IMG/VR virus record: IMGVR_UViG_2582580934_000010
Length of the DNA: 15,672 nt
Reading direction: 5' to 3' (one strand)
Source of the DNA: a virus
Taxonomy: Duplodnaviria; Heunggongvirae; Uroviricota; Caudoviricetes
Position 1 is the stretch's first letter; each line of letters begins with the position of its first letter. This document shows positions 1 through 15,672 of the stretch, one piece after another. The position numbers were made by a program, and so were the translations under genes. The notes beneath the pieces were generated by a model. That model did not search any database. It was not told where the DNA came from and saw only the letters and a program-made list of their open reading frames with translations.

Positions 1-22
1 TTTCAAAATATTCCGCTATTTG

Positions 23-54
23 CTCCCAATGCAAAACATATATTGCATTGGGAG
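23..54 (+). terminator. Perfect 12-bp-stem hairpin (CTCCCAATGCAA / TTGCATTGGGAG, 8-nt loop) followed by a T-rich run; candidate rho-independent terminator for a gene left of the window
   Basis: Inverted repeat read directly from the sequence; T-rich tract (CATATTTTTGTT) lies about 8 nt downstream. Confidence 0.3.
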
Positions 55-183
55 CATATTCATATTTTTGTTATTATTGTATGAAATCGTCTCATGTACA
101 CGGTCCTTTTTTCGCCGAAAACTGATATTACTTTAATCAAAAGTTGACGTGCCAGATTCGAAGTAAATTTATAAAATATCAAA

Positions 184-489
184 TCAATATACATTTTGCA
201 CCTTCGAGATAGTAATAACTGTTACTGTAACATGAGTTACAAACAGCTTCATACCCAGAGCTACTGATGTATCAACTCGATTCAACAATACCCGATATTT
301 ATTCCATGCCTCCAGCAACGATCTTTCTTCCTCCGTTGCGATTTCCAGATCTACAGCATCCTGCAGTGGCGCAATATACTCACTGAATTCCTGGATGTAG
401 AACTGTGTGGTGACGGTCTTCCAGCCATTCGGCTCCTGTTGTATCGAAGCATACCAGGCTATTTCAATATCGCTATGCTGCGGCAGCAT
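184..489 (-). pseudogene. tfaX: Tail fibre assembly protein remnant (tfaX-like); only the central ~40 aa match the Tfa C-terminal domain
   Basis: Residues [38 protein letters not shown] match the lambda Tfa C-terminal region and the paralogue at 1269..1691; the flanking N- and C-terminal residues are unrelated. ATG start at 487-489. Confidence 0.6.
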
Positions 490-545
490 TTAACCCCTTG
501 TAATTCATCGCCATAATTGATTTAATTCACAAATAAAACTATAAC

Positions 546-1214
546 ATGGTGAAATTAATGAAAAAAAACACAGATGATGGGGCTAAAATTTACACACCAC
601 TTACCCTAAAGCTTTATGACTGGTGGGTTTTGGGAGTATCAAATCGGCTTGCATGGGGATGTCCTACAAAGGAACACCTTCTTCCACACTTTCTGGAACA
701 TTTAGGTAACAACCATCTGGATATTGGTGTTGGAACTGGGTTTTACCTTACTCACGTACCTGAGAGTAGTCTGATATCTTTAATGGATTTGAACGAAGCT
801 AGCCTGAACGCGGCATCTACAAGGGCTGGGGAATCAAAAATTAAACATAAAATTAGCCATGATGTTTTTGAACCTTATCCCGCGGCGTTACATGGTCAAT
901 TTGATTCCATTTCCATGTTTTACCTTCTTCACTGCCTGCCTGGAAATATATCTACAAAAAGCTGTGTAATACGCAATGCGGCGCAGGCCTTAACTGACGA
1001 TGGAACTCTATACGGAGCCACAATTCTTGGCGATGGAGTTGTGCACAATAGCTTCGGTCAAAAACTGATGCGCATTTACAATCAGAAAGGCATCTTTTCA
1101 AACACAAAAGATTCCGAAGAAGGCTTAACACATATACTCTCAGAGCATTTCGAGAATGTTAAAACCAAGGTTCAAGGTACTGTAGTAATGTTTTCCGCTT
1201 CAGGGAAAAAATAG
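546..1214 (+). CDS. ybcY: Class I SAM-dependent methyltransferase (YbcY-like moron between the tfa remnants)
   Basis: 222-aa ORF with ATG start and a glycine-rich SAM-binding motif I (LDIGVGTGFY). Position between tfaD and tfaX matches the K-12 DLP12 arrangement as I recall it. No DNA-methyltransferase DPPY/NPPY motif seen. Confidence 0.7.
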   Translation: MVKLMKKNTDDGAKIYTPLTLKLYDWWVLGVSNRLAWGCPTKEHLLPHFLEHLGNNHLDIGVGTGFYLTHVPESSLISLMDLNEASLNAASTRAGESKIKHKISHDVFEPYPAALHGQFDSISMFYLLHCLPGNISTKSCVIRNAAQALTDDGTLYGATILGDGVVHNSFGQKLMRIYNQKGIFSNTKDSEEGLTHILSEHFENVKTKVQGTVVMFSASGKK

Positions 1215-1268
1215 CATCCAACCGCAGCACGTTCTTGCTTAAGACGTGCTGCGGCATAATCCCAATGA

Positions 1269-1691
1269 TTACTCCCTGACAGGGTTCGTAGGCCACTCAA
1301 TATCAGGTGCAGTTGATGTATCAACACGGTTCAGCAACACCCGATACTTTTTCCAGGCTTCCAGCAACAAGGTTTCTTCCTCCGTTGCGATCTCCAGATC
1401 CACAGCATCCTGAAGCGGCGCTATATGCTCACTGGCTACCTGCATCAGGCTGTTTTTTGTTTCTTCCGCCTCACGGATCCGGAACAGTTTTTCTGCTTCC
1501 GTATCCTTCACCCAAGCTGTGCCGTTCCACTTCTGAAACTCCCCTTCCGGGGATAACCAGGTGACATTTTCCGGTAATGAGCCGAGTTCAGAAATAAATA
1601 ACGCGTCGCCGGAAGCCACGTCATAAACCGTTTTACCCCGATGATCTTCAACGAGATGCCACGATGCCTCATCACTGTTGAAAACAGCCAC
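1269..1691 (-). pseudogene. tfaD: Tail fibre assembly protein Tfa, 5'-truncated (tfaD-like); the only in-frame start is a GTG that corresponds to an internal Val of lambda Tfa
   Basis: The 140 aa align with lambda Tfa from ...[18 protein letters not shown] to the C-terminus. Manual translation upstream continues in frame as [37 protein letters not shown] (Tfa-like) and then hits a stop at 1884-1886 without any ATG. Confidence 0.8.
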
Positions 1692-1896: not shown

Positions 1897-4355
<2,459 letters not shown>

Positions 4356-4381
<26 letters not shown>

Positions 4382-4901
4382 TCAGCAACCCCGGTATCAG
4401 TTCATCCAGCGCGGCTGCTTTGTTCATGGCTTTGATGATATCCCGTTTCAGGAAATCAACATGTCGGTTTTCCAGTTCCGGAAAACGCCGCTGCACCGAC
4501 AGGGGGATCCCGTCGAGAATACTGGCAATTTCACCTGCGATCCGCGACAGCACGAAAGTACAGAATGCGGTTTCCACCACTTCAGCGGAGTCTCTGGCAT
4601 TTTTCAGCTCCTGTGCGTCGGCCTGCGCACGCGTAAGTCGATGGCGTTCGTACTCAATAGTCCCTGGCTGGAGATCTGTCTCGCTGGCCTGTCGCAGTTC
4701 TTCAACCTCCCGGCGCAGCTTTTCGTTCTCAATTTCAGCATCCCTTTCGGCATACCATTTTATGACGGCGGCAGAGTCATAAAGCACCTCATTACCCTTC
4801 CCACCGCCTCGCAGAACGGGCATTCCCTGCTCCTGCCAGTTCTGAATGGTACGGATACTCGCGCCGAAAATTTCAGCCAGCTGCTTTTTGTTGACTTCCA
4901 T
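4356..4901 (-). CDS. nohD: Terminase small subunit Nu1
   Basis: 181 aa MEVNKKQLAEIFGASIRTIQNWQEQGMPVLRGGGKGNEVLYD..., lambda Nu1-like with the N-terminal winged-HTH that binds cosB. Confidence 0.95.
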
Positions 4902-5090
4902 TGTTCATTCCACGGACAAAAACAGAGAAAGGAAACGACAGTGGCCAAAAAGCCCGTTTTCAGCACCTGTCGTTTCCTTTCTTTTCAGAGGGTATTTTAA
5001 ATAAAAACATTAAGTTATGACGAAGAAGAACGGAAACGCCTTAAACCGGAAAATTTTCATAAATAGCGAAAACCCGCGAGGTCGCCGCCC
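4902..5090 (-). promoter_or_regulatory. cos: cos site: cosB (Nu1/IHF-binding region) at 4902-5078 and cosN 12-nt cohesive-end sequence at 5079-5090
   Basis: Plus strand 5079-5090 is AGGTCGCCGCCC, the reverse complement of the lambda cohesive end GGGCGGCGACCT. The reverse complement of 4902-5090 reads like the lambda left end (GGGCGGCGACCTCGCGGGTTTTCGCTATTTATGAAAATTTTCCGG...), ending at the Nu1 ATG. Confidence 0.85.
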
Positions 5091-5289
5091 CGTAACCTGT
5101 CGGATCGCCGGAAAGGACCCGCAAAATGATAATAATTATCATCTACATGTCACAACGTGCATCTACGCCATCAAACCACGTCAAATAATCAATTATGACG
5201 CAGGTATCGTATTAATTGATCCGCATCAACTTAACGTAAAAACAACTTCAGACAATACAAATCAGCGACACTGAATACGGGGCAACCTC

Positions 5290-5484
5290 ATGTCAACGAA
5301 GAACAGAACCCGCAGAACAACAACCCGCAACATCCGCTTTCCTAACCAAATGATTGAACAAATTAACATCGCTCTTGATCAAAAAGGGTCCGGGAATTTC
5401 TCAGCCTGGGTCATTGAAGCCTGCCGTCGGAGGCTAACGTCAGAAAAGAGAGCATATACATCAATTAAAAGTGATGAAGAATGA
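5290..5484 (+). CDS. ylcI: Small ribbon-helix-helix-like protein (YlcI-like, DUF3950)
   Basis: 64 aa with ATG start; motif IRFPNQMIEQINIALDQKGSGNFSAWVIEACRRRL resembles RHH (CopG/Arc-type) DNA-binding folds; located between cos and bor as in DLP12. Confidence 0.55.
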   Translation: MSTKNRTRRTTTRNIRFPNQMIEQINIALDQKGSGNFSAWVIEACRRRLTSEKRAYTSIKSDEE

Positions 5485-5648
5485 ACATCCCGCGTTCTTC
5501 CCTCCGAACAGGACGATATTGTAAATTCACTTAATTACGAGGGCATTGCAGTAATTGAGTTGCAGTTTTACCACTTTCCTGACAGTGACAGACTGCGTGT
5601 TGGCTCTGTCACAGGTTAAGTAGTTTGAATGATTAGCAGTTATGGTGA

Positions 5649-5855
5649 TCAGTCAACCACCAGGGAATAATCCTTCATATTATTATCGTGCTTCACCAAC
5701 GCTGCCTCAATTGCCCTGAATGCTTCCAGAGACACCTTATGTTCTATACATGCAATTACAACATCAGGGTAACTCATAGAAATGGTGCTATTAAGCATAT
5801 TTTTTACACGAATCAGATCCACGGAGGGATCATCAGCAGATTGTTCTTTATTCAT
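5649..5855 (-). CDS. ybcW: Uncharacterised 68-aa protein (YbcW-like)
   Basis: ATG start preceded by a GGAG Shine-Dalgarno; length and position match DLP12 ybcW as recalled; convergent with ylcI. Confidence 0.5.
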
Positions 5856-6140
5856 TTTGTCGCTCCATGCGCTTGCTCTTCATCTAGCGGTTAAAATATT
5901 ACTTCAAATCTTTCTGTATGAAGATTTGAGCACGTTGGCCTTACATACATCTGTCGGTTGTATTTCCCTCCAGAATGCCAGCAGGACCGCACTTTGTTAC
6001 ACAACCAATACTATTAATTGAAAACATTCCTAATATTTGACATAAATCATCAACAAAACACAAAGAGGTCAGACCAGATTGAAACGATAAAAACGATAAT
6101 GCAAACTACGCGCCCTCGTATCACATGGAAGGTTTTACCA

Positions 6141-6551
6141 ATGGCTCAGGTTGCCATTTTTAAAGAAATATTCGATCAAGTGCGAAAAGATTTAAACTGT
6201 GAATTGTTTTATTCTGAACTAAAACGTCACAATGTCTCACATTATATTTACTATCTAGCCACAGATAATATTCACATTGTGTTAGAAAACGATAACACTG
6301 TGTTAATAAAAGGACTTAAAAAGGTTGTAAATGTTAAATTCTCAAGAAATACGCATCTTATAGAAACGTCCTTTGATAGGTTGAAATCAAGAGAAATCAC
6401 ATTTCAGCAATACAGGGAAAATCTTGCTAAAGCAGGAGTTTTCCGATGGGTTACAAATATCCACGAACATAAAAGATATTACTATACCTTTGATAATTCA
6501 TTACTATTTACTGAGAGCATTCAGAACACTACACAAATCTTTCCACGCTAA
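6141..6551 (+). CDS. ybcV: DUF1398-family protein (YbcV-like), 136 aa
   Basis: The track ORF 6018..6551 starts at a TTG. I chose the internal ATG at 6141, which has a GGAAGG Shine-Dalgarno 8 nt upstream and gives 136 aa, the length I recall for K-12 YbcV. A TTGACA -35-like hexamer lies at 6036-6041. Confidence 0.55.
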
Positions 6552-6841
6552 ATCATAACGTCCGGTTTCTTCCGTGTCAGCACCGGGGCGTTGGCATAAT
6601 GCAATACGTGTACGCGCTAAACCCTGTGTGCATCGTTTTTAATTATTCCCGGACACTCCCGCAGAGAAGTTCCCCGTCAGGGCTGTGGACATAGTTAATC
6701 CGGGAATACAATGACGATTCATCGCACCTGACATACATTAATAAATATTAACAATATGAAATTTCAACTCATTGTTTAGGGTTTGTTTAATTTTCTACAC
6801 ATACGATTCTGCGAACTTCAAAAAGCATCGGGAATAACACC

Positions 6842-7135
6842 ATGAAAAAAATGCTACTCGCTACTGCGCTGGCCCTGCTTATTACAGGATGTGCTCAACA
6901 GACGTTTACTGTTCAAAACAAACAGACAGCAGTAGCACCAAAGGAAACCATCACCCATCATTTCTTCGTTTCTGGAATTGGGCAGAAGAAAACTGTCGAT
7001 GCAGCCAAAATTTGTGGCGGCGCAGAAAATGTTGTTAAAACAGAAACCCAGCAAACATTCGTAAATGGATTGCTCGGTTTTATTACTTTAGGCATTTATA
7101 CTCCGCTGGAAGCGCGTGTGTATTGCTCAAAATAA
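6842..7135 (+). CDS. borD: Bor lipoprotein (serum-resistance outer-membrane lipoprotein), 97 aa
   Basis: MKKMLLATALALLITGCAQQ... carries a lipobox (LITGC) and is near-identical to lambda Bor as recalled; on the opposite strand to the lysis genes, as in lambda. Confidence 0.9.
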   Translation: MKKMLLATALALLITGCAQQTFTVQNKQTAVAPKETITHHFFVSGIGQKKTVDAAKICGGAENVVKTETQQTFVNGLLGFITLGIYTPLEARVYCSK

Positions 7136-7166
7136 TTGCATGAGTTGCCCATCGATATGGTCAGCT

Positions 7167-7628
7167 CTATCTGCACTGCTCATTAATATACTTCTGGGTT
7201 CCTTCCAGTTGTTTTTGCATAGTGATCAGCCTCTCTCTGAGGGTGAAATAATCCCGTTCAGCGGTGTCTGCCAGTCGGGGGGAGGCTGCATTATCCACGC
7301 CGGAGGCCGTGGTGGCTTCACGCACTGACTGACAGACTGCTTTGATGTGCAACCGACGACGACCAGCGGCAACATCATCACGCAGAGCATCATTTTCAGC
7401 TTTCGCATCAGCTAACTCCTTCGTGTATTTTGCATCGAGCGCAGCAACATCACGCTGACGCATCTGCATGTCAGTAATTGCCGCGTTCGCTAGCTTCAGT
7501 TCTCTGGCATTTTTGTCGCGCTGGGCTTTGTAGGCGATTGCGTTATCACGGTAATGATTGACCGCCCATGACAGGCTGACGATGATGCAGATAATCAGAG
7601 CGGATATAATCGCGGTTACTCTGCTCAC
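7167..7628 (-). CDS. rzpD: Spanin inner-membrane subunit Rz (i-spanin)
   Basis: Matches lambda Rz ([10 protein letters not shown]...KYINEQCR). The likely start is the GTG at 7626-7628, which corresponds to the Met of lambda Rz and overlaps the R stop; the track's upstream GTG at 7640 is the alternative. Confidence 0.8.
7226..7408 (-). CDS. rzoD: Spanin outer-membrane lipoprotein Rz1 (o-spanin), embedded in the +1 frame of Rz
   Basis: 60 aa [24 protein letters not shown]... with a lipobox (VVGC) and a proline-rich C-terminus; the embedded architecture is as in lambda Rz/Rz1. Confidence 0.8.
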
Positions 7629-8122
7629 TGTTGCCCCCACAAACAGACTTCACGCTCAATCTCACGACGAGTCATCAGGCCTTTCCATTGCTTACCGCCA
7701 GCGTATGTCCAGCGACGCAGCTGATCACATGCGCCTTTGATATCGCCCTGGTTTATTTTGCGAAGAAGCGTCGATGTTCTGAAATTGCCAGCACCCACGT
7801 TGTAAACGAATGAGTAAAGAGCGCCGCGCGTTGTTTCCGGTATATCGACTTTGATATACGGGTTAATTTGTCTGGCGACAGTGGCAAGGTCTTTATTCAA
7901 GAGTGCTTTGCATTCTGCTTTGGTATACGTTTTACCGAGCATGATGTCTTTTCCGGTGTGTCCGTGACATACAGTCCATACACCAACAATATCTTTGTAT
8001 GGTATGTAGCTGACACCTTCCAGACCATCGTTACCACTTGGGCCAGTGATTAACACTGATGCTATAGCAATTGCTCCGCCACCAATAGCAGCAGCAACGG
8101 CTTTTCGTAATGATGGAGGCAT
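7625..8122 (-). CDS. rrrD: SAR endolysin (phage 21 R / P1 Lyz type lysozyme)
   Basis: 165 aa; N-terminal Gly/Ala-rich signal-anchor-release segment ([20 protein letters not shown]) followed by an E-x8-D-x5-T catalytic triad ([16 protein letters not shown]); ATG start. Confidence 0.85.
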
Positions 8123-8337
8123 TATTCACCTCTCGCAGCCTTGCGCTTATCTTCTTTAATCTTGAAATAAAGGTTTGTCAGGTACGTCAGCAGGCCAAAT
8201 ACCAGGCTACCCAGCACACCTATTGCTGCCCACTGTGAGGGAGTGACTTTATCGAGCAGCTGTAAAAACCAGTAACCGGCACTACCTGCTGAGGTGCCAT
8301 AGGCGACTCCAGTTGTTAACTTATCCATGAATTTCAT
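8122..8337 (-). CDS. essD: Pinholin (S21-type holin/antiholin with dual start MKFM)
   Basis: The track ORF starts at a TTG at 8382. I chose the ATG at 8335-8337, which has a GAGGTGG Shine-Dalgarno 3 nt upstream and gives the 71-aa protein [14 protein letters not shown]...[11 protein letters not shown] with two transmembrane segments and a Met1/Met4 dual start. Confidence 0.85.
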
Positions 8338-8925
8338 AACCCCACCTCGCAGACAAAGCGGGTGTAAATTGAGGGAATACAACGTATCGCAAAAAAGCAG
8401 AAACGTAACTGACTCCGAGTCAGTGAATAACTCAGGTATTGAGTTATCAGCTAATATCGAGACTCAAAAAATGGAAAAACCAGCTCGACGGCGGGTTTAA
8501 GCTGTGTGACGAAGTAACCACTCTTAACAGCATAACCAATTTTTTACGTACGTAAACCACTGAATGATATTTATGAGAATGCTACCGAGTGTTCAAAACA
8601 TCACCACAAATACATAAGAAAACCTCAACAAATAACCAATAAATAATTTCCAGTGTTATTTTTAGCCGGTTTAAATTAAACAGACGAATTATAGAACCAC
8701 CATAAATAACAGCCATTAATATAAATTAGCTAATAGATTTATTTTTGTTCAAATAAGAGCCATAAATAGGTTTCGATAGAAAAAGTTCAGATAAAAATAG
8801 AGATCTACTTCACAAATTAAATGAGAAACTAAAACTTACATCTTGAAATAATCACATTGATTAGATGAATATTTATCGCGCAGTGACATCATTTTTTAAT
8901 AATAGTTCAAAAAAAAGGGCTCACG

Positions 8926-10023
8926 ATGAAAAAATTAACAGTGGCAATTTCTGCTGTAGCTGCATCAGTACTGATGGCGATGTCTGCTCAGGCAGCTGAA
9001 ATTTATAATAAAGACAGTAACAAGCTGGATCTGTACGGGAAAGTTAATGCCAAGCACTACTTTTCCTCTAACGATGCAGATGATGGTGATACTACTTATG
9101 TTCGTCTGGGCTTCAAAGGCGAAACCCAAATCAACGATCAGCTGACTGGTTTCGGTCAGTGGGAATATGAATTCAAAGGCAACCGCGCTGAATCTCAAGG
9201 TTCCTCCAAAGACAAAACCCGTCTTGCATTTGCAGGCCTGAAATTCGGTGACTACGGCTCAATCGATTACGGCCGTAACTACGGTGTAGCATACGACATC
9301 GGTGCGTGGACTGACGTTCTGCCAGAATTCGGTGGCGATACCTGGACCCAAACAGATGTGTTCATGACTGGTCGCACCACTGGTGTTGCAACCTATCGTA
9401 ACAACGACTTCTTTGGTCTGGTTGATGGTCTGAACTTTGCTGCTCAGTACCAAGGCAAAAACGATCGTAGCGATTTCGATAACTACACCGAAGGTAACGG
9501 TGATGGCTTCGGTTTCTCTGCTACCTATGAATACGAAGGATTCGGTATCGGTGCAACTTATGCGAAATCTGATCGTACCGACACTCAAGTTAATGCAGGG
9601 AAAGTTCTTCCTGAAGTATTTGCTTCCGGTAAAAATGCAGAAGTTTGGGCCGCAGGTCTGAAATATGACGCTAACAACATTTACCTGGCCACTACCTATT
9701 CTGAAACCCAGAATATGACTGTATTTGCTGATCACTTCGTTGCTAATAAAGCTCAAAACTTCGAAGCTGTTGCACAATATCAGTTCGATTTCGGTCTGCG
9801 TCCGTCCGTTGCTTACCTGCAATCTAAAGGTAAGGATCTTGGAGTATGGGGCGATCAGGACTTAGTCAAATATGTTGATGTAGGTGCAACCTATTACTTC
9901 AACAAAAATATGTCTACTTTCGTTGATTACAAAATCAACCTGCTTGACAAAAATGACTTCACTAAAGCACTCGGTGTAAGCACTGATGACATCGTTGCTG
10001 TAGGTCTGGTTTACCAGTTCTAA
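8926..10023 (+). CDS. nmpC: Outer-membrane general porin, NmpC/OmpD/OmpC family (intact, 365 aa with signal peptide)
   Basis: Signal peptide [23 protein letters not shown] followed by AEIYNKD; typical porin motifs and the C-terminal aromatic residue (...VGLVYQF); lies between Q and the lysis cassette on the opposite strand. Confidence 0.9.
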
Positions 10024-10039
10024 TCTGATTACGAAAAAG

Positions 10040-10073
10040 ATATGTTGCGGGAGGCGTTGCCTCCCCAACATAT
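10040..10073 (-). terminator. Strong hairpin (15-bp stem with one bulge, GTT loop) followed on the minus strand by CTTTTT; candidate tR'-like terminator of the late leader transcript
   Basis: ATATGTTG(C)GGGAGGC-GTT-GCCTCCC-CAACATAT read from the sequence. The U-tract follows only on the minus strand. Confidence 0.4.
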
Positions 10074-10161
10074 AAGTGGCTCCCTCAAGCCACTTCCTTT
10101 AGGAGCACAACCTTGCTTCTAACTATATAAACCTTCTGTTATATATTACCCTTTATTTTTG

Positions 10162-10190
10162 GGGGCGTTGCAACGCCCCATTTTTAATAA
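10162..10190 (+). terminator. Perfect 18-nt palindrome GGGGCGTTGCAACGCCCC followed by ATTTTTAATAA; candidate rho-independent terminator of the porin gene
   Basis: GC-rich stem plus T-tract on the plus strand, 140 nt after the porin stop codon. Confidence 0.45.
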
Positions 10191-10212
10191 CTTTCAGTAA
10201 ACAATTGGCATA

Positions 10213-10596
10213 TTAATTAGAGTTATTAACAACGATATCCATCTCTAACCGGATATCTAATGCCATTAACATCCCTTCAATTATGCCCTCAGCCTTCTGT
10301 AACCTTTTCCCGATATAACCATCAGAGCAGCAATGCTTACCTGCCAGTGACATGAATGTCATACCGACTACATAATAATCTACTAATAAATCGTGCAAAT
10401 CGCTGTTGTTCTTTTTCAGACGGGCCATGCACCCGCAAATGATCATCGCGTCATCGTCACAACATTGCGGGCGAGATTTTACTTTTGAAGGAATTAATCC
10501 CTTAAAACCGGCGGCAATGGACGACCAGGTCACATCTTCATGATTATTAGCCGCCCACGCTCCCCAACGTTCAAGAACCATCTGAATATCACGCAT
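10213..10596 (-). CDS. quuD: Late-gene antiterminator Q (phage 21/82-type, QuuD-like), 127 aa
   Basis: The track ORF starts at a TTG at 10611; the ATG at 10594-10596 gives 127 aa [22 protein letters not shown]... with Cys-rich segments ([19 protein letters not shown]). Positioned upstream of the lysis cassette on the same strand. Confidence 0.8.
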
Positions 10597-10721
10597 TAAC
10601 TTTCTCCACAAAATCAGGCCAGCACACCAATCGCCAGTGCGCGATCGATAAAACGAAATATCAGCTCCAGCTGGGAGCCATACTTCTCTTCAAATGCCAC
10701 GGTATCCACAACAGTAGTAAT

Positions 10722-11213
10722 CTACAGATTGCCGTTAAGTTTTCTGGACAACTCCTCAATGGATGGAGGCGATACGTAATCCGGATTTTTATTCATCAGA
10801 AACTTATTTTCACAGTGGAGGCACCTGCTTTTATGAAAAAGCTCATCTTCGCTAACCGGGAATGGTTGAAGTATCGATACTATCTTTTGTCCAAAACATT
10901 TTGGGCAAAGATGCATGGTTATGCTGCCACCGTTCACGATTACCTCCTTCGAGTATACAAAAGTACCCGACTCAAGTTGGTTAAGGATATAGCCTTCCGT
11001 CTGAGCCTCAAAGTTTTCGAATTCTGCAATTTTAGCTTTGAGAGAAGCATTTATTTCTTGATAAGAGCCCACCAGTTCAACGAGAGACACGCATTCGCGC
11101 TGAATAGACGCAAGCTTTGAGTTCAGCTCACCAATAGCCGCATTTACTTCAGCTTGAGTTTTTGCCTCGTTCATTAGTTTTGCAATCTGGGCTGTTTCAC
11201 GAATAGCCGTCAT
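10722..11213 (-). CDS. Hypothetical protein: N-terminal coiled-coil (~70 aa) plus C-terminal CxxC-x21-CxxC zinc-ribbon-like domain; no family recognised
   Basis: The track ORF (259 aa) begins in low-complexity sequence that reads through the upstream repeats. The plausible start is the ATG at 11211-11213 (163 aa, weak Shine-Dalgarno) or the GTG at 11235-11237 (171 aa, AAGAG 8 nt upstream). Heptad-like N-terminus (AQIAKLMNEAKTQAEVNAAIGELNSKLASIQRE...), then HLCPKCFGQKIV...SRCLHCENKF. Confidence 0.5.
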   Translation of the reverse strand: MTAIRETAQIAKLMNEAKTQAEVNAAIGELNSKLASIQRECVSLVELVGSYQEINASLKAKIAEFENFEAQTEGYILNQLESGTFVYSKEVIVNGGSITMHLCPKCFGQKIVSILQPFPVSEDELFHKSRCLHCENKFLMNKNPDYVSPPSIEELSRKLNGNL

Positions 11214-11251
11214 TGCTGCCGTTAATTCAGCGATCACATTGAATACTCTTA

Positions 11252-11297
11252 TTGTTGTTGGGGATATCCAGATTAACCGAATCCTTGTTGTTGGGGA
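11252..11297. repeat. Two direct copies of TTGTTGTTGGGGA (11252-11264 and 11285-11297), 33 bp apart, immediately upstream of the 10722..11213 gene
   Basis: Exact 13-bp match read from the sequence; on the minus strand the motif is TCCCCAACAACAA. Confidence 0.7.
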
Positions 11298-11379
11298 ATA
11301 ACCAGGTCCACCTCGCCTGATGTGGCTAAAAGCAGGCACATAACAGCTAAGTATTTTCAACCAGAGAGAATCCTTAGCG

Positions 11380-11570
11380 TTGTGGTGAATGCGGCTCAGC
11401 GCACGCGGGTTAAGGTTGAGGCTGACAGTCGACCTTCTGTGGACACCCACCCGCCTGGTGTGCAACCTTCGCCAGGCACCGGGAGGCACCCGGCACCACA
11501 ACTTTATGCTGTGTGTAGTCCTGGCGGTACCAGTTTGTACCCTTGCTTCCGGCTGGTACCGTCCTTTTTT
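11380..11570 (+). ncRNA. Candidate structured RNA or leader element: GC-rich non-coding segment with several potential stems, ending in a terminator (stem CGGTACCAG/CTGGTACCG at 11525-11561 plus CTTTTTT at 11564-11570)
   Basis: No plausible protein in any frame (translations are Pro/Arg-rich). Local GC is clearly higher than in the flanks. Helices include GCGGG/CCCGC, CCTGG/CCAGG and CCGGG/CCCGG, with a terminal hairpin plus U-tract on the plus strand. Confidence 0.25.
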
Positions 11571-11571
11571 G

Positions 11572-11658
11572 CAAAACAGAGAAGAGCATCACCGGACGAC
11601 GGGCTCATAACCCAATCCATCCGGGCGGCTGCCACCGCAGGTGTTCTTCTCTGTTTTG
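11572..11658. repeat. 14-bp perfect inverted repeat CAAAACAGAGAAGA (11572-11585) / TCTTCTCTGTTTTG (11645-11658) bracketing a 59-bp GC-rich spacer, about 50 bp upstream of the yfdP-like start
   Basis: Read directly from the sequence. Confidence 0.7.
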
Positions 11659-11707
11659 TGGAGAAACCAACCGACCTTGCAGGGTCGATATGATGAGGAG
11701 CAGCAAA

Positions 11708-12070
11708 ATGGCTAGCGAACGCAGTACTGATGTGCAGGCATTTATCGGGGAGCTGGACGGCGGCGTATTTGAAACCAAAATCGGCGCAGTTCTCAGTGAG
11801 GTCGCTTCCGGTGTGATGAACACGAAAACCAAAGGGAAGGTCTCACTCAATCTGGAAATCGAACCGTTTGATGAGAACCGTGTGAAAATCAAACACAAAC
11901 TCTCATATGTTCGCCCAACTAACCGCGGGAAAATTTCCGAAGAAGACACCACCGAAACGCCGATGTATGTCAATCGCGGTGGTCGCCTGACTATTCTGCA
12001 GGAAGACCAGGGACAATTACTGACTCTTGCCGGTGAACCTGACGGAAAACTCCGCGCAGCAGGTCGTTAA
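11708..12070 (+). CDS. yfdP: Hypothetical protein, YfdP-like (120 aa); first gene of the int-proximal plus-strand operon
   Basis: The track ORF starts at 11543; I chose the ATG at 11708, preceded by GAGGAG with 7-nt spacing, which gives 120 aa MASERSTDVQAFIGELDGG.... Length and neighbours match the K-12 CPS-53 yfdP-Q-R-S-T series as recalled. Confidence 0.55.
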   Translation: MASERSTDVQAFIGELDGGVFETKIGAVLSEVASGVMNTKTKGKVSLNLEIEPFDENRVKIKHKLSYVRPTNRGKISEEDTTETPMYVNRGGRLTILQEDQGQLLTLAGEPDGKLRAAGR

Positions 12071-12135
12071 TATCGTTCGTAATAAACTGATTATTTATCT
12101 CATCACTGAATATCTTTATATAGTGAGGACTTATT

Positions 12136-12960
12136 ATGTCTCAGAACTTAGACGCAACCGCAATTAATCAAATCCATGCCCTTATTTCTGCTCAGGGTGT
12201 TAATGAAATTATCAGTAAGATTGGTGCCGATGCTGTGGCATTGCCTGAGAATTTCCGCATTCATGATCTGGAAAAATTTAATTTAAATCGCTTCCGTTTC
12301 CGTGGTGCGCTTTCCACTGCCAGCATCGATGACTTTACCCGTTATTCTAAAGATCTTGCAGATGAAGGCACCCGCTGCTTTATCGATGCTGATAATATGC
12401 GTGCCGTCAGTGTGCTTAACCTGGGTACTATTGATGAGCCAGGTCACGCAGATAACACTGCCACTCTCAAACTGAAAAAGACAGCACCGTTCTCTGCTCT
12501 GTTGTCTGTTAACGGCGAGCGTAACTCCCAGAAGTCACTGGCAGAATGGATCGAAGACTGGGCCGACTACCTTGTGGGCTTTGATGCTAATGGTGACGCC
12601 ATTCAAGCAACAAAAGCGGCTGCGGCAGTCCGTAAAATCACGATTGAAGCAAACCAGACCGCTGATTTTGAAGATAATGACTTCAGCGGCAAACGCTCCC
12701 TGATGGAGTCTGTCGAAGCGAAGACCAAAGACATTATGCCAGTGGCATTTGAATTTAAATGCGTTCCGTTTGAAGGTCTGAAAGAACGTCCGTTTAAATT
12801 ACGCCTCAGCATTATCACTGGCGATCGTCCTGTACTGGTTCTGCGCATTATTCAGCTGGAAGCGGTGCAGGAAGAAATGGCTAACGAATTTCGTGATCTG
12901 CTTGTTGAGAAATTCAAAGACAGCAAAGTAGAAACCTTTATTGGTACTTTCACCGCCTGA
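12136..12960 (+). CDS. yfdQ: Hypothetical protein, YfdQ-like (DUF2303), 274 aa
   Basis: ATG start with a GAGGA Shine-Dalgarno; length and context match YfdQ as recalled. Confidence 0.6.
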
Positions 12961-12972
12961 TTTCATTACTGC

Positions 12973-12999
12973 AAATGCCCCTGCGGGGGCATTTATGGA
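12973..12999 (+). terminator. Hairpin AAATGCCCC-TGCG-GGGGCATTT followed by ATTTAT; possible attenuator or terminator after the yfdQ-like gene
   Basis: GC-rich 9-bp stem 13 nt after the stop codon; the U-tract is short. Confidence 0.3.
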
Positions 13000-13087
13000 A
13001 ACGTAATTAACTCAATAATCACCGGATGGTGAGGGCTTCCTTTTACCAGAATTCAGCGCGGTGCAGTGCATATACGTGGAGAACAAA

Positions 13088-13624
13088 ATGTCATTTATTA
13101 AAACTTTTTCCGGGAAGCATTTTTATTATGACAAGATAAATAAAGACGACATCGATATTAACGATATCGCGGTTTCCCTTTCAAATATCTGTCGCTTTGC
13201 CGGTCATCTTTCGCACTTCTACAGCGTCGCCCAACATGCGGTTCTTTGCAGCCAGCTGGTGCCGCAGGAATTTGCTTTTGAAGCGTTAATGCATGATGCA
13301 ACAGAAGCGTATTGCCAGGACATTCCCGCACCACTGAAACGCCTTCTTCCTGACTATAAACGGATGGAAGAAAAAATAGACGCCGTAATCCGTGAGAAAT
13401 ACGGGTTACCCCCAGTTATGAGTACACCCGTGAAATATGCCGATCTCATCATGCTGGCAACCGAACGCCGCGATCTCGGGCTTGATGATGGCTCTTTCTG
13501 GCCTGTACTGGAAGGCATCCCGGCAACAGAGATGTTCAACGTGATTCCACTGGCACCGGGTCATGCCTACGGGATGTTTATGGAACGTTTTAACGATTTA
13601 TCGGAGTTACGCAAATGCGCATGA
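13088..13624 (+). CDS. yfdR: HD-domain phosphohydrolase, YfdR-like (5'-deoxynucleotidase family), 178 aa
   Basis: The internal ATG at 13088 has a GGAG Shine-Dalgarno and gives 178 aa. His...HD metal-binding signature (FAGHLSHF...LMHDATEAY). Confidence 0.65.
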   Translation: MSFIKTFSGKHFYYDKINKDDIDINDIAVSLSNICRFAGHLSHFYSVAQHAVLCSQLVPQEFAFEALMHDATEAYCQDIPAPLKRLLPDYKRMEEKIDAVIREKYGLPPVMSTPVKYADLIMLATERRDLGLDDGSFWPVLEGIPATEMFNVIPLAPGHAYGMFMERFNDLSELRKCA

Positions 13625-13977
13625 ATGTTTTCGAAATGGAAGGGTTTCTTCGCGGGAAATGTGTACCGCGAGATCTGAAAGTGAACGAAACAAATGCTGA
13701 GTACCTGTTACGTAAATTCGACGCGCTTGAAGCTAAATGTGCGGCACTGGAAAACAAAATAATACCAGTGTCAGCTGAACTGCCACCAGCAAATGAAAGT
13801 GTTCTGTTATTTGATGCTAATGGAGAAGGCTGGCTGATTGGCTGGCGTTCTCTCTGGTACACCTGGGGACAAAAAGAAACCGGAGAATGGCAGTGGACAT
13901 TTCAGGTCGGGGACCTTGAAAACGTCAATATCACTCACTGGGCAGTAATGCCAAAAGCACCGGAGGCTGGAGCATAA
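13615..13977 (+). CDS. yfdS: Hypothetical protein, YfdS-like (DUF551-type), 120 aa
   Basis: Overlaps the yfdR stop; Trp-rich C-terminus (GEGWLIGWRSLWYTWGQKETGEWQW); length matches YfdS. Confidence 0.55.
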   Translation: MRMNVFEMEGFLRGKCVPRDLKVNETNAEYLLRKFDALEAKCAALENKIIPVSAELPPANESVLLFDANGEGWLIGWRSLWYTWGQKETGEWQWTFQVGDLENVNITHWAVMPKAPEAGA

Positions 13978-14282
13978 TGACCACATTTACCAATAAAGAA
14001 CTGATTAAAGAAATCAAAGAACGAATCAGCAGCCTAGAGGTTCGAGACGATATTGAGCGCCGTGCTTATGAAATCGCACTCGTATCTCTGGAAGTAGAGC
14101 CAGATGAACGCGAAGCCTATGAATTATTCATGGAAAAGCGTTTCGGTGACTTAGTAGATCGTCGGAGAGTAAAAAACGGCGATAACGAATACATGGCATG
14201 GGATATGACTCTCGGTTGGATCGTCTGGCAGCAACGAGCTGGTATCCATTTTTCAACAATGACACAGCAAGAGGTGAAATAA
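13977..14282 (+). CDS. yfdT: Hypothetical protein, YfdT-like, 101 aa
   Basis: TAATG overlap with the yfdS stop; length and position match YfdT. Confidence 0.55.
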   Translation: MTTFTNKELIKEIKERISSLEVRDDIERRAYEIALVSLEVEPDEREAYELFMEKRFGDLVDRRRVKNGDNEYMAWDMTLGWIVWQQRAGIHFSTMTQQEVK

Positions 14283-14653
14283 TGGAGCCATACAGCCTCA
14301 CACTCGATGAGGCCTGTCAGTTTCTTAAGATATCCAGACCAACCGCCACCAACTGGATACGAACAGGCCGCCTACAGGCAACACGTAAAGATCCAACCAA
14401 GCCAAAATCTCCTTACCTCACAACACGGCAAGCTTGCATTGCGGCGCTTCAGTCTCCGCTGCATACTGTCCAGGTGAGCGCGGGTGATGGCATAACAGAG
14501 GAAAGAAAATGTCACTCTTCCGCAGAAATGAAATATGGTATGCCTCGTATTCGCTCCCGGGCGGGAAACGAATTAAGGAATCTCTTGGCACAAAGGACAA
14601 GCGGCAAGCTCAGGAGTTGCACGACAAGCGAAAAGCAGAACTCTGGCGAGTAG
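14282..14653 (+). CDS. Excisionase-like HTH protein (Xis/AlpA/TorI family); the 3' end overlaps the int start by 145 nt, so the functional length is uncertain
   Basis: The ATG at 14282 overlaps the yfdT stop and follows a GAGGTG Shine-Dalgarno. N-terminal HTH-like segment [30 protein letters not shown]; immediately upstream of the integrase. Confidence 0.5.
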
Positions 14654-15672
14654 AAAAGCTAGGGGATTTACCTGATGTCACTTTTGAAGAGGCCTGCCTA
14701 AGATGGCTTGAGGAAAAAGCTGATAAAAAATCTCTCGATTCAGATAAAAGCCGGATTGAGTTCTGGCTTGAACATTTTGAGGGTATAAGGCTTAAAGATA
14801 TCTCGGAGGCAAAGATTTACTCTGCTGTAAGCAGAATGCATAACAGAAAGACGAAAGAAATATGGAAACAGAAAGTTCAGGCCGCCATCAGGAAAGGTAA
14901 AGAACCGCCTGTTTATGAACCAAAGCCAGTATCAACTCAGACAAAGGCAAAGCATCTTGCCATGATAAAGGCCATTCTCCGTGCTGCAGAACGCGACTGG
15001 AAGTGGCTGGAAAAAGCGCCTGTCATCAAGATACCAGCGGTCAGAAACAAGCGAGTCAGATGGCTGGAAAAGGAGGAAGCAAAACGCCTTATTGATGAGT
15101 GCCCCGAACCACTGAAATCTGTCGTCAAGTTTGCGCTGGCAACTGGTCTGAGAAAGTCGAACATCATAAATCTGGAATGGCAACAAATCGACATGCAGCG
15201 ACGAGTTGCCTGGGTGAATCCAGAAGAGAGCAAATCAAACCGCGCCATTGGTGTGGCGCTGAACGATACCGCCTGTAAAGTGTTGCGTGATCAAATAGGC
15301 AAGCATCACAAATGGGTGTTTGTACATACCAAGGCGGCTAAGCGAGCAGATGGAACATCAACGCCTGCGGTCAGGAAGATGCGCATCGACAGCAAGACAT
15401 CATGGCTATCAGCTTGTCGTCGTGCAGGAATTGAAGATTTCCGTTTCCATGACCTCAGACACACCTGGGCAAGCTGGCTGATCCAGTCAGGCGTCCCATT
15501 ATCTGTGCTTCAGGAAATGGGCGGATGGGAGTCCATAGAAATGGTTCGTAGGTATGCTCACCTTGCGCCTAATCATTTGACAGAGCATGCAAGGAAAATA
15601 GACGACATTTTTGGTGATAATGTCCCAAATATGTCCCACTGTGGAATTATGGAGGATATAAAGAAGGCGTAA
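14509..15672 (+). CDS. intD: Tyrosine integrase, P22/DLP12 IntD-like, 387 aa
   Basis: ATG with a GAGGA Shine-Dalgarno; N-terminus [34 protein letters not shown]; C-terminal catalytic signature HDLRHTWAS...MVRRYAHL (His-x-x-Arg and the Tyr nucleophile). Confidence 0.9.

Follow-up and report, generated by a model that had tools for sequence, protein, structure and literature searches.

The window analysed here, a stretch of 15,672 nucleotides from IMG/VR virus record IMGVR_UViG_2582580934_000010, carries at 11214-11707 a segment between divergently oriented genes that an earlier note on this DNA, made from the letters alone, had read as an immunity-region position holding a small regulatory RNA or an antitermination leader. 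We found that the plus strand of 11346-11570 encodes an RNA element which, judged by its sequence, is a divergent relative of the prophage family STnc100 (RF02076) that standard annotation has missed. Our comparisons show that the pseudoknotted RNA is conserved and that the terminator behind it is functional in vivo in the Escherichia coli K-12 orthologue, and they show this arrangement to be recurrent at the head of the early-left operon. Together, these findings indicate that the small-RNA interpretation of the earlier note was essentially right and that its immunity interpretation was wrong.

The non-coding stretch occupies 11238-11707, between a minus-strand gene for a 171-aa product (10722-11237) and yfdP (ATG 11708). 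Its G+C at 11300-11599 is 0.58-0.585 compared to 0.42-0.46 in the flanks, and the plus strand of 11340-11575 folds at -93.1 kcal/mol (z -3.19, equalled by 0 of 200 shuffles), while the minus strand of the same stretch was unremarkable (z -1.11). On composition and fold, the earlier description of about 490 bp of GC-rich, structured, non-coding DNA stands for 11238-11707; it is in doubt for 11214-11237, which may be coding because the Prokaryotic Genome Annotation Pipeline (PGAP) puts the start of the 171-aa gene at GTG 11237. The plus-strand fold comprises four parts within 11346-11570, namely a P0 hairpin, a multi-helix domain closed by GUUGUGGUG/CACCACAAC, a 20-nt tail and a terminator:

11346-11378, plus strand: P0 hairpin, abutting the core; GCUAAG (11346-11351) pairs with CUUAGC (11373-11378) in the minimum-free-energy fold
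11379-11502, plus strand: STnc100-type core of 124 nt with five helices and a pseudoknot, from the RF02076 match, the covariance model R1 (below), pair counts and pseudoknot tests
11379-11387 with 11494-11502, plus strand: helix P1
11388-11390, plus strand: junction AAU
11391-11406, plus strand: helix P2 with loop CUcaGCG
11407-11409 with 11450-11452, plus strand: helix P3, GGG with CCC
11412-11418 with 11463-11469, plus strand: pseudoknot, AAGGUUG with CAACCUU
11453-11460 with 11470-11477, plus strand: helix P4
11479-11493, plus strand: helix P5, CCGGG-AGGCA-CCCGG
11503-11522, plus strand: single-stranded tail UUUAUGCUGUGUGUAGUCCU, from sequence comparison
11523-11570, plus strand: intrinsic terminator, from folds; a 13-bp stem (11523-11535 with 11551-11564) followed by U6 (11565-11570)

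Searching the segment against Rfam at gathering score returned nothing. With an E-value threshold, 11349-11572 (plus strand) aligned over the whole STnc100 model at 40.2 bits (E 3.1e-7 when 701 nt were searched and 6.9e-6 for the whole window), and the orthologues in PhiR49_1, SfV, ST64B and phiES15 scored 35-41 bits against the same model. Typical copies reach its gathering score, at 48-138 bits, and a subfamily with a GCGGC-type P2, to which the window copy belongs, goes uncalled by Rfam. We then scanned one genome per species with the 19-mer CCGGGAGGCACCCGGCACC, a P5/P1 motif, and obtained at least 120 loci; in at least about 110 of them, which belong to Enterobacteriaceae, Erwiniaceae and Yersiniaceae, GGUGAAU stands 64-109 nt upstream of the 19-mer. 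A covariance model built from 64 diverse copies, with the window copy in the seed (R1), detected 150 instances across 100 loci, among them tandem-array copies without the motif.

Across about 145 distinct enterobacterial copies, in an R1 alignment that was fitted to its own structure, 97.7% of cells were paired as opposed to 41-48% with partners slid. Two-sided changes occurred in 20 of the 24 pairs, and the covariation score was 0.455 versus at most 0.088 in controls. The pseudoknot, in which 6-7 nt after P2/P3 pair with the P4 loop, gave a mean best helix of 6.46 compared to 4.86 +/- 0.10 when loops were permuted among sequences (0/2000). In 33 copies without the search motif, P5 and the AAU junction were still kept and P1 covaried widely; the conserved blocks (the G-AAU junction, the CUnnGCG loop and CACCGGGAGGCACCCGGCACC) are present in these copies as they are in the window, at 11387-11390, 11395-11401 and 11477-11497. 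The earlier note had guessed at a small regulatory RNA and had pointed to a covariance-model scan and to compensatory changes among homologues; the STnc100 match (E 3e-7, below gathering score) and the strong, mostly two-sided covariation now place the element in a prophage small-RNA family.

The element shares with STnc100 the helices P1, P2, P4 and P5, the GGUGAAU and CACCGGGAGGCACCCGGCACCA motifs, a terminator 3' of the core and a prophage location. It differs from typical STnc100 in its P2 stem, which is GCGGC/GC-CGC and not CCCCC/GGGG, in an extra inner hairpin, in its P0 hairpin, in lacking a -10 element of its own and in its place within the early-left operon of pL; the typical copies are found following Q, tRNAs or stx, or as stand-alone genes. 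The only own-promoter signal across the family is a weak TAnnnT at -12..-7 before P1. The terminator follows the core shortly, as expected for an STnc100 RNA of about 170-210 nt, and a hairpin with a T-run lies 28-113 nt after P1 in 66 of the 150 copies; a simple terminator scan missed the window terminator only because its loop is 15 nt. In ST64B and phiES15 the sequence of the terminator stem is wholly replaced and the stem structure and U-run are kept; both phages also retain the tail motif GCUGUGUG(U/A)AGUC and have, at the P0 position, a hairpin of different sequence. A riboswitch-like terminator/antiterminator switch was considered and rejected: the 7-9-bp pairing of the P4 3' strand with CCUGGCG (11520-11526) seen in the window has no conserved counterpart in ST64B, phiES15 or mEp460, and the core stayed intact when folding was constrained.

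Intact relatives and the missing repressor

At this locus the window is 99.8% identical to the inducible phage PhiR49_1. By blastn, window 10703-15672 corresponds to PhiR49_1 4984-15 (99.84%) and window 7512-10710 to PhiR49_1 14951-11769, and at the junction between them (10703-10710) PhiR49_1 4985-11768 is absent. This deletion of about 6.8 kb includes pL/oL, cI, cro, O and more, and it has joined a fragment of a DUF968/YdfU-family gene to where the region of the 171-aa moron ends. A large structural-gene block has also been lost and rearranged (window 1-1388 corresponds to phage 42172-40792, and window 1947-5452 to phage 20555-17051). On these alignments the window is a decayed, deleted PhiR49_1-like prophage, and because the 6.8-kb deletion took pL, oL, cI and cro, the absence of a repressor reflects decay and not RNA-based immunity.

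Intact relatives carry cI and cro about 0.9-1.2 kb upstream of the RNA. In PhiR49_1, pL (TTGACA-16-CATAAT) directly follows the cI terminator, and operator repeats overlap pL and recur between cI and cro. The RNA has cI (with variable morons) on one side and the first early-left gene on the other in PhiR49_1, SfV, SfIV, ST64B, phiES15, mEp460, Stx2a_WGPS2 and K-12 e14. Because intact phages place it between pL and that gene, the positional analogy to a pL leader is a fair one, and the RNA is a pL-operon leader element, not an immunity determinant. The earlier picture of an immunity-region position without a repressor therefore describes a region whose repressor was deleted, intact relatives keeping cI/cro with operators flanking pL, and an RNA substituting for the repressor falls for the same reason.

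The element resembles the lambda pL leader (nutL - N - tL1) in being a non-coding leader with a first terminator gating the delayed-early left genes, and the pL leaders of PhiR49_1 and SfIV contain a lambda-like consensus boxA (GCUCUUUAACAA). It is unlike the lambda leader in that no N gene or boxB was identified and in that boxA is absent from e14 and SfV and deleted from the window. A perfect rrn/lambda-type boxA (GCTCTTTAACAA) with a hairpin before it lies about 105 nt downstream of pL in PhiR49_1 (L002 3536-3547), SfIV (L005 2816-2827) and an E. coli prophage (L009 2369-2378, minus strand); in SfIV it is followed by an unannotated plus-strand open reading frame (ORF) with a strong Shine-Dalgarno sequence (ATG at L005 2874). 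The pL leader of ST64B has a further GC-rich non-coding stretch of about 280 nt (L004 3166-3450), without an Rfam match and with its own terminator GCGGAAACCGCCAGCUUUUU, before the STnc100-type unit, and a 12-mer, AGCAACAGATAA, is repeated at L004 3273 and 3455.

An RNA-based immunity like that of P4 CI or P1 C4, replacing a protein repressor, had been suggested by a positional impression in what has turned out to be a deleted prophage. The element does resemble P1/P7 C4, P4 CI and Gifsy-1 IsrK in that these are phage structured RNAs processed or terminated from operon leaders. However, the repressor region is deleted here, relatives keep cI/cro and their operators, target repeats of the tail did not exceed chance in the window or in PhiR49_1, and neither at gathering score nor at E<=1 did C4 (RF01695), isrK (RF01394) or c4-a1b1 (RF03163) match the window. 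The C4/isrK RNAs of the relatives SfV, ST64B and mEp460 map to a different locus, in the right operon, which was deleted from the window. Comparison with intact phages contradicts this form of immunity, which we regard as refuted, with scarcely any probability left to it. In the three phages C4 scores 80-84 bits and isrK 64-67 bits, both above gathering (SfV L003 726-927, ST64B L004 909-1110 and mEp460 L128 823-1024, all minus strand), and weak c4-a1b1 target-site matches score about 21-23 bits against a gathering score of 46.7. All of these matches sit inside the annotated 'transcriptional regulator/antirepressor' gene, that is, a P1-type RNA-controlled antirepressor module in cI/cro phages.

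The ymfH orthologue of K-12

The K-12 gene ymfH of e14 (b1142) is the same element and scores 68.6 bits with R1. Identity to the window is about 92-95% for the conserved box that lies upstream of P0, for P0 itself, for the core, tail and terminator and for a second structured domain beyond the terminator (domain 2), and both copies lead the early-left operon. The e14 copy differs in lying directly before xisE-intE, with no yfdP-yfdT genes, in a 1-nt deletion and a G>A change in P5, and in being annotated as a protein. Published Term-seq data from K-12 place three minus-strand 3' ends at the e14 element, at 1201195, 1201257 and 1201423 (PMC7815308 supplement). The first coincides with the final U of the terminator and corresponds to window 11570; the second lies 4 nt after P1, at about window 11506; and the third, a strong 3' end, falls after the box hairpin, equivalent to window 11339. 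The claim of the earlier note that this strand encodes a structured RNA ending at 11570 in a stem and U-run is thus borne out, both by the 13-bp stem with U6 and by a 3' end at the homologous U-tract in K-12.

Of 5,426 complete E. coli genomes, about 2,080 (about 38%) carry the element; K-12 CPS-53 is without the RNA. In K-12, ymfH, xisE and intE are co-induced by DNA damage/SOS (PMC11228462), and over-expressed ymfH triggers the retron-Sen2 toxin RcaT (bioRxiv 10.1101/2020.06.22.160242). The ymfH clone used in the retron work should mainly make the RNA, because it starts at the first P1 base and contains the intrinsic terminator.

Annotation favours a decayed protein gene of a YmfH family. 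PGAP records only a 'frameshifted hypothetical protein' at the window locus, K-12 ymfH is annotated as a 103-aa putative protein, and the translations match PHROG families of unassigned function that derive from ORFs called on this DNA. We nevertheless consider a protein origin very improbable. No ORF in the segment has a Pfam match, core lengths modulo 3 are evenly spread (52/37/49), only 52 of 138 copies have the YmfH frame open, and ST64B and phiES15 have different ORFs with no conservation. Furthermore, the GTG start of ymfH is the first base of P1 and lacks a Shine-Dalgarno sequence, the intrinsic terminator lies inside the ORF, and the covariation is of the RNA type. The absence of Pfam matches and the unconserved ORFs in ST64B and phiES15 agree with the earlier statement that no frame gives a plausible protein.

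Candidate functions of the RNA

Several relatives have been characterised. STnc100 copies are transcribed in EDL933 (11 copies), with one verified by Northern blot (PMC5331693). EcOnc27/sRNA103 of enterohaemorrhagic E. coli overlaps an STnc100 copy downstream of stx2B and binds Hfq (PMC12711010), and PasD1/2 of enteropathogenic E. coli E2348/69 are Hfq-stabilised RNAs of about 172 nt, PasD1 having been verified by Northern blot (PMC8550237). A 2026 preprint reports a structural link between PasD and STnc100. We found that PasD1 matches R1 at 28.4 bits and that its chimeras from RIL-seq, in which interacting RNAs are ligated and sequenced, map to the tail and terminator. PasD1 and PasD2 (EcOnc13 homologues) have the same architecture as the window element, including the pseudoknot, followed by a tail and terminator, and the window tail occupies the position of the PasD RIL-seq seed region. 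Hfq dependence is a feature of PasD1/2 and EcOnc27, and the PasD seed lies in the tail. PasD differs from the window copy in having its own promoter (TTGACT-17-TATTAA) with a 5' end at P1, in its position between Q and the lysis genes and in a divergent P5; the likeness of its tail to that of the window (UGUGAGUUCUGGC vs UGUGUAGUCCUGGC) was judged by eye only.

On balance, we lean towards 11346-11570 (plus strand) being an STnc100/PasD-family small RNA made from the early-left transcript, whose terminator also gates yfdP-int and which is probably Hfq-bound and pairs through its tail. In intact relatives the element is the first long non-coding stretch of the pL operon, separating the immunity region, together with an inserted opposite-strand moron, from the first delayed-early gene. 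A discrete RNA of about 170-230 nt would be released by termination at 11570, and the terminator may act as a tL1-like gate before yfdP-yfdQ-yfdR-...-int. By analogy with PasD1/2 and EcOnc27/sRNA103, from which we infer a function in trans, the released RNA would bind Hfq through its terminator and U-tail and pair with mRNAs through its tail, with the conserved core as a putative stabilising or partner-binding scaffold.

A number of observations weigh against this tail-pairing small RNA. The invariant loops and junctions (AAU, CUnnGCG, AGGCA) together with the pseudoknot are unusual for a mere base-pairing scaffold and hint at a specific partner. No tail-complementary sites above chance were found in the window or in PhiR49_1, and the Hfq and target evidence is confined to PasD1/2 and EcOnc27, which fall outside the window subfamily. 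That subfamily is also without the -10 element that immediately precedes P1 in PasD, and no sigma-70-like promoter was detected upstream of the RNA within the window; with no nearby promoter detected and the element orphaned from pL, expression in the window is uncertain. The induction of xisE and intE, which lie beyond the e14 terminator, means that read-through occurs. As to the family assignment itself, the window copy falls short of the RF02076 gathering score of 47, and its R1 score of 86 bits is circular, not independent, because the window is in the seed alignment.

The same invariance would be explained if the pseudoknotted core were the functional part, binding a protein or defence component as decoy, sensor ligand or trigger, with the tail and terminator only finishing the transcript. 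Loops and junctions are near-invariant across Enterobacterales families and the helices covary and the inserts vary; copies stand in tandem arrays and adjoin phage tRNA genes; P5 directly abuts the P1 3' strand, like a T-arm on an acceptor stem; and RcaT is triggered by a ymfH clone predicted to make mainly the RNA. We still hold this to be unlikely, given that the core has no known partner, that the trigger effect may be that of a peptide or indirect, that PasD interactions map to the tail and not the core, and that neither the Rfam tRNA model nor ARAGORN recognises the core (ARAGORN found no tRNA in the window, and RF00005 had no match at E<=10 in 11100-11800). The tRNA-like traits are limited to the abutment of P5 on P1 and the adjacency to tRNA genes. 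A bolder version, in which the STnc100/'YmfH' core would be a dedicated pseudoknotted, multi-copy fold of acceptor/T-arm-like geometry, often fused to tRNA arrays, that engages a conserved host or defence factor, and in which retron triggering would be an effect of the RNA, seems to us decidedly unlikely; if true, this would be a phage RNA sensed by, or counteracting, defence systems rather than an ordinary base-pairing small RNA.

Two further explanations place the function in cis. A cis-acting leader could make polymerase terminator-resistant, like HK022 put, or serve as the recognition site of an antiterminator, so that pL transcripts reach xis/int. At least 8 phages that lack an annotated N gene have the element between pL and the first early-left terminator, which would fit such a leader, as would the induction by SOS of genes past the e14 terminator and the two terminators in the ST64B pL leader. 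HK022 putL/putR likewise have pL upstream and terminators downstream, in phages for which no N gene is annotated (for our element, in the intact relatives, pL being deleted in the window), but put is about 70 nt with two stem-loops as opposed to a 124-nt core with five helices, a pseudoknot and its own terminator working in the orthologue. The best R1 hit in the whole HK022 genome was 5.8 bits (E 8), and putL/putR, read directly, bore no resemblance in sequence or structure, so that we dropped the put homology, and the put analogy of the earlier note finds no support in these comparisons. Moreover, family members accumulate as terminated RNAs of about 170-210 nt; a 3' end is formed in vivo at the e14 terminator, so that without induction the core leaves this terminator active; four homologues have no alternative antiterminator fold; many copies stand alone before unrelated genes (KdgM porin, MarR, holin, TolA-C); and PhiR49_1 and SfIV have, upstream in the pL leader, a canonical boxA that points to a Nus-type system instead. 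A cis-acting leader is consequently quite improbable in our estimate. The remaining explanation is that only the DNA and terminator matter, insulating yfdP-int from upstream transcription, and that the RNA is a functionless by-product. The terminator is strong and conserved as a structure, and the window holds no promoter; this view, however, leaves unexplained the 124-nt core, the 20 of 24 compensated pairs and the covarying pseudoknot across dozens of genera, and it has only a slim chance of being right.

Flanking features, family contexts and significance

The features on either side of the RNA element are as follows:

11214-11237, minus strand: probable first codons of the 171-aa moron gene (10722-11237), with the GTG start given by PGAP in its annotation of the identical locus L001; alternative start ATG 11213
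11238-11345, no strand assigned: spacer with the right arm of the 19-nt moron-cassette inverted repeat (11256-11274), two TTGTTGTTGGGGA direct repeats and the conserved box hairpin, from repeat search and sequence comparison
11571-11668, plus strand: domain 2, a long hairpin with arms 11572-11593 and 11640-11658 enclosing a small junction (fold z -4.38)
11672-11710, plus strand: small hairpin (11672-11687), Shine-Dalgarno GAGGAG (11695-11700) and yfdP start ATG 11708 (in-frame ATGs at 11690 and 11693), from sequence and annotation

The product of the 171-aa gene matches phrog_1244 (E 9e-60), has weak coiled-coil-like Pfam matches and is of unassigned function. In PhiR49_1 this gene is bracketed by 19-nt inverted repeats that are 95% complementary (L002 3546-3564 / 4107-4125), and, lying antisense within the pL operon, it looks like an inserted moron cassette. 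Other opposite-strand genes fill the moron slot in SfIV, mEp460, e14 (ymfI) and SfV. The TTGTTGTTGGGGA repeats were considered as operators near the RNA and rejected, since they are the moron-cassette boundary and the true oL/pL lie further upstream in PhiR49_1. The box hairpin (GCCUG...CAGGC, 11308-11339) reads on the opposite strand in e14 as a moron promoter/5'UTR, which makes that role likelier than a nut site, although a strong RNA 3' end lies there in K-12.

Structure does not end at 11570, as had been supposed, but continues as a second conserved domain to 11668. Domain 2 covaries with its counterpart in ST64B (L004 3726-3830), where a compensatory G>A/C>U change is seen in the alignment. 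This long, near-perfect hairpin brings the U-tract of the terminator into pairing with a motif GGAGAAA and may therefore be a site for RNase III or an element of translation control, in which case it would serve RNase III-type processing or translation control in the leader of yfdP, whose product matches phrog_204. Other phages (Klebsiella Kp4866-6, Salmonella F1055, Escherichia LLS/Flotzy/Eeyore) have domain 2 as a module of its own, without an STnc100-type core.

Within the wider family, tandem arrays of 3-5 STnc100-type copies spaced by about 220-270 bp were seen in Pantoea (L080/L090/L096) and Superficieibacter (L048/L049/L067/L077/L120), as well as on the 400-kb Pantoea plasmid pAPP145_2 (L039/L050). 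Copies often stand directly after, or alternate with, phage tRNA genes (L058 6655-6909, L095 3717-5512, L087, L011, L105, L111), with a gap of 11 nt in L058 and a tRNA starting 7-10 nt after P1 in L095 and L107. A Kosakonia/Klebsiella/Raoultella/Citrobacter/Enterobacter subfamily has a -10-like hexamer 5 nt before P1 (L018, L032, L038, L041, L043, L051, L056, L065, L082, L092, L110, L124), and in at least 4 of its loci a KdgM-family porin gene lies 80-145 nt downstream. Elsewhere in the window, the yfdQ-yfdR spacer (12960-13077, plus strand) gave a weak full-length R1 match of 18.7 bits that includes the hairpin AAAUGCCCCUGCGGGGGCAUUU and is kept in K-12 CPS-53, SfV, SfIV, mEp460 and PhiR49_1; such a match could reflect a degenerate copy, or merely a terminator. 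Two Rfam IS009 (RF02111) matches lie at 1312-1510 and 263-466, both on the minus strand, with 221.6 bits (above gathering) and 107.4 bits (just below), respectively.

Collectively, these data remove a false lead, in that a deletion and not an RNA-only immunity region accounts for the locus, and they re-assign a widespread locus, including the K-12 y-gene ymfH, from a hypothetical or frameshifted protein to a structured RNA. The Rfam threshold for STnc100 misses the whole early-left-leader subfamily, and the description of the family gains a covarying pseudoknot and a list of invariant loop residues. They also raise the question of how SfV, ST64B and e14-type phages without an annotated N gene read through the terminators of their pL leaders, and they offer a concrete RNA-based hypothesis for how ymfH may trigger a retron toxin-antitoxin system.

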